Assembly (NCBI GenBank): GCA_012490745.1
Contig: GCA_012490745.1_3925.1
Origin: a phage
DNA: 64,000 nucleotides
Strand: one strand, 5' to 3'
Part shown: piece by piece, positions 50,180 through 51,960 of the stretch
How positions within the stretch are numbered: the first letter of the stretch is position 1
Layout: each line of letters starts with the position of its first letter
Notes under the pieces: generated by a model
The model's input: only the letters and a program-made list of their open reading frames with translations
Told to the model about the DNA's origin: nothing
The model's database searches: none
Program-made: the position numbers and the translations under genes

Positions 50180-50481
50180 TGACTTGTCAACAGATTTTAT
50201 AGCTTATTTGGCAGATTTTTTATAAGGCTACTGCCATCCTTCCAAACTATACCAAACCTAACCCCACCTAACCCTACCACACCAGACCTAACCTAACCTT
50301 GTTAAAAGACCCTCTTAAAGACCTTTTAAAAAGGTAAGTCTCATTTTAATGTAGCTGAGACTAACTACCCATACCAGACCCTACCTTACCAAACCAGACC
50401 TCACCCTACCCCACCATACCGTATACTACCTCATTAAAAGACCCTCTTAAAGACCTTTTAAAAAGGAGCCTCCGAAGAGGC
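50180..50481. repeat. Left flanking repeat block: hairpins, C/A-rich degenerate repeats (ccaaacc / accttacc / ccagacc) and 69-nt core 50302-50370 identical to 51713-51781
   Basis: 69-nt core ttaaaagaccctcttaaagaccttttaaaaaggtaagtctcattttaatgtagctgagactaactaccc occurs twice; terminator-like hairpin gcctc-cgaa-gaggc at 50466-50481. Confidence 0.7.
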
Positions 50482-50493
50482 TACCTAGTCAAC

Positions 50494-50934
50494 TTAGAAA
50501 GGTTTTCTACGTTGCTTGTTAATGTTAGCTTTCATAGCAGCTAAATGGTTTTGCTGTTCAATTAGTCGTGAACGTTCTTGATGGCTAAGTGCCATAGTGT
50601 TCACATTCTCAATCGCTTGAGTGGCTTGCTTTAAAGCACGACCAATCTTACCAGACATTTTACGTTTTGCAATAGTTGCTTGATGCTTAGGTTCAACCAC
50701 ACGATAACCAACACCCATTGAAGCAACCAGATAAATCTTCTCTTCTTTAAGAAGCTTCTCAATAAACTTCTCAAGTCGGTTTAGACGTGTAAGCGCATAA
50801 GCCTTCATTTCATCTTCGTACTTAACAATGTCACCTTGATAAGTTGGTTTCACAATACCTAAGAAGGTATCCATCTCAGAATGTGATACAGTGTCACCGT
50901 AACTAAACTTTGCTGCTAATGCTTTTGTATTCAT
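50494..50934 (-). CDS. hypothetical protein (146 aa) in repeat-flanked cassette
   Basis: ORF; basic C-terminus. Confidence 0.5.
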   Translation of the reverse strand: MNTKALAAKFSYGDTVSHSEMDTFLGIVKPTYQGDIVKYEDEMKAYALTRLNRLEKFIEKLLKEEKIYLVASMGVGYRVVEPKHQATIAKRKMSGKIGRALKQATQAIENVNTMALSHQERSRLIEQQNHLAAMKANINKQRRKPF

Positions 50935-50936
50935 AA

Positions 50937-51539
50937 TTAAACGTTACCTTCTGAAATAACTTCTACAGAAAAACGACCAAAGCGTGGACGCCAATCACCT
51001 ACACCGCAAAGGTTACCAGCATTTTCCAGAACCATCAAGAGTTCCTCTTTGGTGATTTGCTCTTCATCGAACATCAAACCAAACTCTACAGACCAATCAC
51101 GGAAGATTGGACGGTAGCTCATAACTCGTGCTGTACCAATCTTAACAGATTTAGCATAGATAAAATCTGGATTCTTAGCAAGTTCTTGTGGGTTTGCTGG
51201 ACAGTTCTTGATAGTCATTGGGAAGACTACATCTGTCAGCATAATGGCTCGGTCAATTACCTTACCAAGTTTGTTGAGCTTTGCACCAGACTTGATACAA
51301 GCCTCAATCATCTCACCGTTCATAACAAAACCAAGTTGCTCATCGTAGTAACAAGAAGTTACCAGTTGACTTTCTGCTAAGAGCGCATAGTCTTCGTCAG
51401 TCTTTTTACGTTTACTGGACAGAGACTTGTGATATTTTGTCAGAGGGTTTAATGGGTCTGACAGCGTATCGTTATGGCTCAGGAAAGGACGAGTACCAGT
51501 GATTTTGATATTTAACAGTTTCATAGCATTTAGCTCCAC
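50937..51539 (-). CDS. hypothetical protein (200 aa) in repeat-flanked cassette
   Basis: ORF; no recognisable catalytic motif. Confidence 0.5.
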
Positions 51540-51569
51540 ACTTTAGTTGATTGTTAAGTTGTTTGTAAA

Positions 51570-51960
51570 GAACCCTCAACAGAAGACTCTTTAGAAACTT
51601 GGTAGATTTTTAACGTGGCTACTACCATCCACCCATACCATACCGAACCTTACCTTACCAAACCAGACCGCGCCTTACCAAACCAGACCAAACATTACTT
51701 TACCCTACCTTATTAAAAGACCCTCTTAAAGACCTTTTAAAAAGGTAAGTCTCATTTTAATGTAGCTGAGACTAACTACCCGCACTTTACCGCACCGGAC
51801 CTTACCGGACCGCACATCACCGCACTAAACCAGACATCACATTACCTGACCACACCAAACCAAACATCACATTACTTAAAAACCCTCTTAGAAGACTCTT
51901 AAGTGATGTTGGTGAGTACCCGTTGGTTTATGCTGCTCAGTATACTCACCAAATTTTCTA
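51570..51960. repeat. Right flanking repeat block, homologous to 50180-50481
   Basis: Hairpin ggtag...ctacc covaries with ggcag...ctgcc in the left copy; same C/A-rich repeats; identical 69-nt core. Confidence 0.7.

Follow-up and report, generated by a model that had tools for sequence, protein, structure and literature searches.

What two small minus-strand genes are doing between two homologous non-coding blocks is the question raised by a locus in a stretch of 64,000 nucleotides of phage DNA (GenBank assembly GCA_012490745.1, contig GCA_012490745.1_3925.1), called the window below. The window phage is a Felixounavirus (Felix O1-like myovirus); Escherichia coli phage TH10 is 98.8% identical over the region, and 257 related phage records match it. 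With a probability of about 93%, the locus is a type II VIPR (Viral Interference Programmable Repeat) system of the SUSP1 clade, composed of the genes vipr and vap1 and of guide-RNA genes (vrRNAs) in the blocks. The VIPR system is already known: two 2026 preprints, which surfaced in a full-text literature search on pentanucleotide repeats in phages, describe it in the near-identical system of Escherichia phage SUSP1. An initial annotation, made from the sequence alone, had reported an unusual two-gene locus between homologous blocks, and all the elements it described are present.

In the published model system, that of SUSP1, VIPR has three parts: Vipr, a minimal RAMP protein (about 20 kDa); a vap gene for an accessory protein; and vrRNAs with 9-16 YNNGG repeats and a conserved 3' pseudoknot tail (bioRxiv 10.64898/2026.04.26.720920). 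The same preprint reports that SUSP1 vrRNAs are about 100 nt long by small-RNA sequencing and co-purify with Vipr in a pull-down, that the NN dinucleotides read double-stranded DNA with one target base skipped per repeat, and that binding represses transcription in GFP and phage assays. Guides were reprogrammable, vap1 raised protection in the SUSP1 assays, and 18 of the 20 assignable guides of the SUSP1 clade aim at a satellite phage in E. coli genomes (10.64898/2026.04.26.720920). Cryo-electron microscopy shows one protomer on each repeat, with named residues sequestering the GGY bases, and an R-loop triplex made by the gapped hybrid of RNA and DNA (10.64898/2026.04.26.720927).

Proteins and guide modules of the locus

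No recognisable function had been assigned to either gene, but the larger product has a solved structure. The 195-aa protein matches PDB entry 36pp ('SUSP1 Vipr protein') over its full length (E 6e-128) and is 97.9% identical to SUSP1 Vipr, with four substitutions (N18A, P119Q, V189I, I190M). Residues H17, K33, E71, M72, R138, C173, D177, W178 and R179 are retained. The predicted model of the window Vipr has a CRISPR RAMP (Cas7-like) fold, with the single RRM, G-loop and thumb of a minimal RAMP. The 146-aa product is 99.3% identical to its SUSP1 ortholog, whose position in the locus identifies it as vap1; it belongs to PHROG 5926, in which the function is unassigned. A search for Vap1 homologs found none outside the clade, and Pfam, NCBIfam and PADLOC returned no match, Cas families included, for either protein.

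The two genes lie between block A (50180-50493, 314 nt) and block B (51540-51973, 434 nt). Blocks of about 370 bp had been proposed; they are homologous (a 175-nt stretch in common, at 78% identity), but they differ in size from that figure and each consists of two tandem modules, giving four modules at the locus (two upstream and two downstream of the protein genes) and not two repeats. The identical 69-nt core is exact at 50302-50370 and 51713-51781, and a 31-nt core, AAAAGACCCTCTTAAAGACCTTTTAAAAAGG, occurs three times (0.00 expected by chance). The C/A-rich degenerate repeats noted on the plus strand are likewise present, but their strict 5-nt period had gone unrecognised: NNACC on the plus strand, GGTNN on the transcribed minus strand. 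The pattern ACCNNACCNNACCNNACCNNACC, with at most two mismatches, gives 43 matches against 0.03 expected, all within blocks A and B, and no comparable array was found elsewhere in the window. On the transcribed strand each module comprises a leader (CATCACTTAAGAGTCTTCTAAGAGGGTTTTTA or CCTTTTTAAAAGGTCTTTAAGAGGGTCTTTTAATRA), 11-19 pentamer units and a 34-nt tail; the four arrays have 19, 15, 12 and 11 units. The features are, in the order of transcription:

51939-51966, minus strand: sigma-70-type promoter TTGACA-16-TATACT, 11/12 consensus matches, directly after the ligase stop codon
51877-51908, minus strand: leader of type alpha, CATCACTTAAGAGTCTTCTAAGAGGGTTTTTA, before vrRNA-1; kept ahead of promoter-proximal arrays in 29 related loci
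51782-51876, minus strand: vrRNA-1 tract, 19 GGYNN-type units, with an apparent internal duplication
51748-51781, minus strand: vrRNA-1 tail of type i, GGGTAGTT AGTCTCA GCTAC ATTAAAA TGAGACT, an H-type pseudoknot
51710-51747, minus strand: leader of type beta, TACCTTTTTAAAAGGTCTTTAAGAGGGTCTTTTAATAA, before vrRNA-2 (motif scans)
51635-51709, minus strand: vrRNA-2 tract, 15 units (pentamer analysis)
51601-51634, minus strand: vrRNA-2 tail of type iii, GGGTGGAT GGTAGTA GCCAC GTTAAAA ATCTACC, the ggtag...ctacc hairpin
50937-51524, minus strand: vipr, minimal RAMP protein, 195 aa from the ATG at 51524, the same product as in relatives (the mechanical open reading frame extends to a GTG at 51539)
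50494-50934, minus strand: vap1, 146-aa accessory protein; its reading frame starts 2 nt downstream of vipr, in a two-gene operon
50467-50482, minus strand: intrinsic terminator stem-loop AGCCTCTTCGGAGGCT followed by a T-run, 3' of vap1
50431-50466, minus strand: leader of type beta before vrRNA-3 (motif scans)
50371-50430, minus strand: vrRNA-3 tract, 12 units, unit 2 degenerate (TATAC) (pentamer analysis)
50337-50370, minus strand: vrRNA-3 tail of type i, within the 69-nt exact repeat
50299-50336, minus strand: leader of type beta before vrRNA-4 (motif scans)
50244-50298, minus strand: vrRNA-4 tract, 11 units (pentamer analysis)
50210-50243, minus strand: vrRNA-4 tail of type iv, GGAAGGAT GGCAGTA GCCTT ATAAAAA ATCTGCC, the ggcag...ctgcc hairpin

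The promoter at 51939-51966 reads into vrRNA-1, is kept in relatives and is annotated as a promoter in AYO145A; it would drive the vrRNAs. Within the window the alpha leader motif is essentially restricted to the locus, and the leader may be a 5' handle, a processing site or a promoter. Leaders as a general phage promoter motif were rejected, the motif being confined to the locus.

Unit composition was compiled from 943 units in 79 distinct arrays of related loci. Position 1 is G in.75 of the units, T in.14, A in.10 and C in 0; position 2 is G in.98; position 3 is T (.92) or C (.08), never a purine; positions 4 and 5 can be any base. The unit is thus a conserved GGY followed by a freely varying NN. 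Between related arrays the differences are of whole 5-nt units. Unit-level duplications were seen inside two window guides (units 1-4 against units 7-10 in vrRNA-1, and a repeated CT-TT-AA in vrRNA-2); change in the guides thus seems to involve the duplication of units besides point substitution.

On the transcribed strand each array has 25-38 G against 1-10 C. This extreme skew is what a role at the level of the DNA or its structure would build on, whether as a transcription-primed R-loop origin, a dense set of primase sites (GGGTC/TGGTC), two-tetrad G-quadruplex arrays or a C-rich antisense RNA loading Rho; the strong promoter reading into the arrays and the GG-N3-GG spacing, which suits two-tetrad quadruplex motifs, point the same way. 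Such a role would leave the near-invariant pyrimidine at position 3, the strict period and the complementarity to targets (see below) unexplained. C is not enriched after GGT (.16), which argues against T7-type primase sites, and GC skew tracks the orientation of the genes, the locus showing no inflection of the kind expected at an origin; T7-type primase sites and an R-loop origin were rejected on these two grounds. Two-tetrad G-quadruplexes and a Rho rut site on the antisense RNA were set aside as well, as were decoys of BREX (GGTAAG) or EcoP1I (AGACC) sites, GGTAA not exceeding its base-frequency expectation. The probability of a DNA-level role is close to negligible.

The 34-nt tails were compared in a gapless alignment of 17 distinct tails, with partners slid by 1-3 columns as a control. 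There are few sequence types, with at least four stem variants, and two helices are kept throughout. Columns 9-15 pair with columns 28-34 in a hairpin; this is the covarying hairpin of the initial annotation (ggcag...ctgcc against ggtag...ctacc), which is real but is one stem variant among several and is accompanied by a second covarying helix. In the latter the 5' flank pairs with the hairpin loop (columns 3-6 with 17-20: GTAG/CTAC, GTGG/CCAC, AAGG/CCTT), and together the two helices form an H-type pseudoknot. Over the 11 pairs, 90.4% of cells are paired against 29-42% in the slid controls, and compensatory changes occur in 9 of the 11 pairs; the pseudoknot helix is 100% paired, with compensatory changes in 3 of its 4 pairs. 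The tails fall into a few paralogous types, which means a small number of independent covariation events. Rfam covariance models gave sub-threshold chance matches only (E >= 2.5), none of them on arrays or tails.

A period of three conserved and two free bases in about 11-13 units, followed by a hairpin, also resembles the site of the TRAP protein. In the Bacillus trp leader about 11 trinucleotide repeats with two free bases between them are bound one per subunit, and TRAP thus shares with VIPR a single-stranded RNA whose repeats are each bound by one protein subunit. It differs in its unrelated fold, in its motif ((G/U)AG in B. subtilis, against GGY) and in its spacer bases, which carry no information, whereas those of VIPR carry all of it. 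The arrays could then be cis-regulatory sites for a ring- or filament-forming RNA-binding protein that controls the termination or translation of the neighbouring genes, with no guides acting in trans; that they lie in the untranslated regions, 5' and 3', of the operon would suit this. Yet a cis site has no need of hypervariable NN bases that match foreign DNA, and the arrays persist in genomes with no adjacent vipr or vap to regulate. The tail hairpins are poor terminators, and the only match in a terminator scan of the locus is the vap1 terminator. Published structures show the NN bases pairing to DNA, and reprogramming of NN in SUSP1 is reported to redirect repression to a new target while vipr and vap expression stays the same. 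Control in cis is extremely unlikely; TRAP-like attenuation was set aside. The expectation that the arrays bind RNA or protein is borne out in another form, that of VIPR guides.

Matches to a satellite element

The satellite was found by searching for the phage baseplate-hub gene in 5426 complete E. coli genomes, 474 of which contain it. It is an element of about 11 kb whose genes include those for a tape-measure protein, a baseplate and a serine recombinase; it is inserted beside tonB or elsewhere, and appears to parasitise phages of the Felix O1-like/SUSP1 clade. About 550 nt of the phage baseplate-hub gene (36542-37345) are 91-95% identical to the satellite gene. HNH endonuclease genes are likewise found in satellites, together with genes that bear an AP2/ERF-family annotation. 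A tape-measure search of IMG/VR gave four satellite loci only, and 14 satellite variants were sampled in all.

From 30 loci, all guides with 10 or more units were scored after the tail-proximal unit had been dropped, the criterion being a match of at least 80% of NN bases. With one target base skipped per unit, 51 of 64 guides reach at least 80% against the satellite variants, six of them perfectly; the other spacings gave 0/64 (no skip), 2/64 (2-nt skip) and 6/64 (3-nt skip). The published 1-nt-skip rule is thereby reproduced independently, with other loci and other satellite copies.

Three of the four window guides have target matches that range from partial to good. At a 1-nt skip, units 10-18 of guide 1 match the tape-measure gene of the satellite, on its antisense strand, at 18/18 NN bases, and the last 12 scored units match 21/24 (counted from the alignment); the match also occurs in a satellite fetched independently of guide 1. 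For guide 2, units 6-13 match at 16/16 NN bases; the site is intergenic and conserved, and lies upstream of a satellite gene of about 235 aa (L037 11426-11470; L168 7337-7381; L170 4872-4916); a scan with this 16-base core gave at least 120 matches, mostly random. The satellite site of guide 2 lies in TCTTTAAGAGTTTTTAAACAGAGCTTTTAA (opposite strand), which resembles the vrRNA leader motif TCTTTAAGAGGGTCTTTTAA. Over their full length guides 1 and 2 score 0.68-0.72. The first eight units of guide 4 match the satellite baseplate gene perfectly, and the whole guide matches 18/22 (0.82; range 0.82-0.85). The gene is otherwise about 93% identical between satellite and phage, and the site is the patch where it diverges from the phage baseplate-hub gene (36741-36855), with nearly identical flanks. 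An exact-pattern scan of IMG/VR with guide 4 gave no match. The satellite match of this guide is no more than moderately secure. The longest perfect runs of guides 1-4 are 9, 8, 5 and 8 units; in 100 shuffles of the units the longest run averages about 5, with a maximum of 7. No self-target of at least 0.8 was found in the 64-kb window, where the best NN matches of the four guides are 0.63-0.75.

Several points weigh against identifying the locus as a VIPR system. For guide 3 no convincing target was found: its best scores on satellites are 0.75-0.77, and IMG/VR holds no exact-pattern match. A single metagenome match of guide 3, in an ABC-transporter substrate-binding gene of an unrelated bacterium, was judged to be chance. 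Of the four window guides, just one attains the published 80% criterion when scored over its full length, and under the 2-nt-skip control guide 4 still scores 0.80-0.82, short AT-rich guides having a high background. Three of the 14 satellite variants were fetched with the core pattern of guide 1 itself. With 19 units, vrRNA-1 exceeds the published range of 9-16, an excess that probably comes from its internal duplication. A DNA-binding role is predicted for Vap1, but its weak single-sequence model (pLDDT 68) gave only insignificant winged-helix-like matches. The mechanistic claims come from two preprints and not from peer-reviewed work, and it is by analogy with SUSP1 that the window vrRNAs would be expressed and processed.

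By near-identity to SUSP1, one Vipr protomer would bind each repeat and build up a helical filament, which would hide the GGY bases and expose the variable NN dinucleotides. These would pair with double-stranded DNA and leave out one target base in three, in most cases the wobble base of a codon. The R-loop or triplex at the target would then repress transcription, and the satellite parasitising the phage would be the natural target silenced by VIPR; by the same analogy, repression would take place during infection by the window phage. The site had been described as typical for anti-defence or host-takeover cargo. In the usual sense the cassette is neither; it is better described as an RNA-guided DNA-binding system against a phage-parasitising satellite (10.64898/2026.04.26.720920; targeting replicated here).

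A satellite from E. coli PRO_A-1401-6M-A_ESBL carries a vrRNA-like module of its own (locus L040, 4135-4189, minus strand) with 11 units and a tail but no Vipr gene; the tail is a fifth stem variant (TGTCG.../...CGAC). Against other satellites its guide scores 0.90-0.95, which agrees with the preprint (10.64898/2026.04.26.720920). Such satellite-encoded vrRNAs presumably must also use Vipr in trans.

Distribution among relatives and guides without vipr

That the module is accessory, present in some relatives and absent from others, proved correct: Vipr was found in about 130 of the 257 matching records. Its identity is at least 97.9% in all listed Enterobacteriaceae phages except Shigella phage vB_SflM_004 (92.3%), a range that spans Felixounavirus, Citrobacter phage Moogle, SUSP1 and SUSP2; phages of Gordonia, Pseudomonas, Mycobacterium and Vibrio have relatives that are 31-44% identical. 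In 29 IMG/VR loci fetched via the ligase, arrays lie only downstream of the ligase gene, with 0-5 arrays per locus and 6-20 units each. Mooglevirus Sf16, one of the genomes that lack the cassette, has no arrays. Parts of the blocks are labelled in GenBank only as 'repeat_region', 'promoter' or 'terminator', and the arrays are not mentioned in the Felix O1 genome paper.

A comparison of related genomes for a repeat copy left behind had been proposed, and such copies exist. Felix O1-type genomes without the cassette have the ligase gene, one or two repeat modules and the next gene: a single module with a decayed array in FO1a, two intact modules in BPS17S6, and one module together with an unrelated 200-aa gene in Salmonella phage FGS030. 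The FGS030 gene (locus L005, 1297-1899), which has no PHROG assignment, lies between the ligase gene and the single vrRNA module; the site downstream of the ligase therefore appears to be a hotspot for alternative cargo.

The direct repeats might accordingly be read as recombination substrates or scars of a mobile, moron-like two-gene cassette, with no function of their own. The presence of the cassette in about half of the related genomes, the one or two modules at empty sites, the unrelated gene at the same site in FGS030 and the 69-nt exact repeat, which would support homologous recombination, all suit this explanation. Scars would not be expected to conserve GGY over 943 units while NN varies freely, nor to keep two covarying helices in their tails, and the NN strings match satellite DNA only under the 1-nt-skip geometry. 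In SUSP1 the repeats are expressed as RNAs that bind Vipr and guide repression (10.64898/2026.04.26.720920). Functionless scars are thus very unlikely, and the repeats are regarded as vrRNA genes, neither the recombination-prone scars nor the promoter or terminator duplications considered earlier. Gain or loss of the cassette by recombination between modules is probably a secondary effect.

Intact guides also occur without vipr. Salmonella phage BPS17S6 (MG646671.1; locus L173, 42648-42819) has two intact GGYNN arrays with tails, and one of its guides matches the satellite at 0.95; its complete genome contains no vipr or vap by tblastn and a Vipr profile HMM (hidden Markov model). Locus L032 has a perfect 11-unit satellite match; here vipr was checked only in the 9-kb locus. 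Further orphan vrRNA modules were noted in loci L011, L034, L035 and L019. In loci without vipr 8 of 12 guides score at least 0.8, against a noisy control (4/12 at a 2-nt skip), while individual matches of orphan guides (22/22, 19/20 and 26/30 in a search space of about 0.5 Mb) are far beyond chance. Guide modules might outlive Vipr or circulate independently of it, the orphans being used in trans with the Vipr of a co-infecting relative, or the leaders and tails serving as handles for recombination, through which guides and the vipr-vap cassette are reshuffled within the Ounavirinae; this is a tentative and rather doubtful proposal. In its accessible part, the text of preprint 10.64898/2026.04.26.720920 says nothing of orphan guides in Vipr-less phages and contains neither 'orphan' nor 'standalone'.

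Neighbouring genes, related systems and significance

Flanking the locus are, on one side, the gene of the ATP-dependent DNA ligase (51974-53074) and, on the other, that of a small secreted protein (49734-50117); the neighbouring reading frames are the ligase, a helix-turn-helix (HTH) regulator and small proteins of unknown function. An inverted repeat, GGTGAGTA(C)...GTA(T)ACTCACC, at about 51911-51951 overlaps the -10 box of the vrRNA-1 promoter. It could serve as an operator or form a hairpin in ligase transcripts that read through. A second inverted repeat of 19 nt (AAATAAGCTATAA...TTATAGCTTATTT, 50163-50209, 89% complementary) brackets the -35 box of the next operon's promoter (50190-50162). 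It looks like an operator because that operon includes the HTH regulator gene (49228-49557).

Two observations concern other parts of the window. A cluster of tRNA-like T-arm motifs (GAGGGTTCRAATCCC) at about 17700-21700 on the plus strand, met in a motif scan, fits the cluster of tRNA genes that Felix O1-like phages are known to carry. A 188-aa reading frame (54878-55444, minus strand) with the motifs IDHVNGD and SGYKGV resembles homing endonucleases of the HNH/AP2 type.

The closest known system is that of SUSP1. Besides the two proteins, it has in common with the window its place immediately downstream of the gene for the ATP-dependent ligase, guides made of GGY/NN pentamers, the types of pseudoknot tail and the family of satellites that it targets. 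SUSP1 (locus L017 here) differs in having one upstream and three downstream arrays, in agreement with the publication, where the window has two and two. The NN guide sequences differ as well, one window guide has reached 19 units through internal duplication, and SUSP1 belongs to its own genus.

With the backbones of class 1 CRISPR-Cas systems (the RAMP filaments of Cas7, Csm3 and Cmr4) VIPR shares the RAMP/RRM fold with glycine-rich loop and thumb, one protomer per fixed RNA step, periodic base flipping and a structured RNA handle capping the guide. The CRISPR step is 6 nt with five pairing bases, whereas that of VIPR is 5 nt with two pairing bases and a 1-nt target skip, and each VIPR guide is a separately encoded gene and not an acquired spacer. 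No CRISPR array (identical repeats of about 28-37 nt with unique spacers), cas1/cas2 or other cas genes were found, only pentamer arrays and module duplications. Vibrio phage ICP1 offers a parallel: a lytic phage that encodes a CRISPR-Cas system against PLE, the chromosomal satellite parasitising it. VIPR is alike in being an RNA-guided system of a lytic phage aimed at a parasitic chromosomal satellite. ICP1 differs in having a complete type I-F CRISPR-Cas system with nuclease and spacer acquisition, whereas VIPR represses transcription. No acquisition machinery is known for VIPR.

VIPR is a newly reported form of RNA-guided DNA recognition, in which the guide information is non-contiguous and distributed over pentamer repeats, and Vipr has been proposed to be ancestral to the CRISPR RAMPs (VIPR preprints). 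The window is a clean natural example, with promoter, leaders, four guides, pseudoknot tails, vipr, vap1 and terminator, and the independent replication of the 1-nt skip supports claims that have so far rested on preprints. An unusual system was recognisable from the raw sequence, though it is no longer undiscovered. The remaining interest of this known locus lies in two points, each going slightly beyond the accessible part of the preprint text. Relatives that lack Vipr carry intact, target-matching guides, and the target of guide 4 is the one patch at which a gene common to phage and satellite diverges, which would amount to discrimination between self and non-self.

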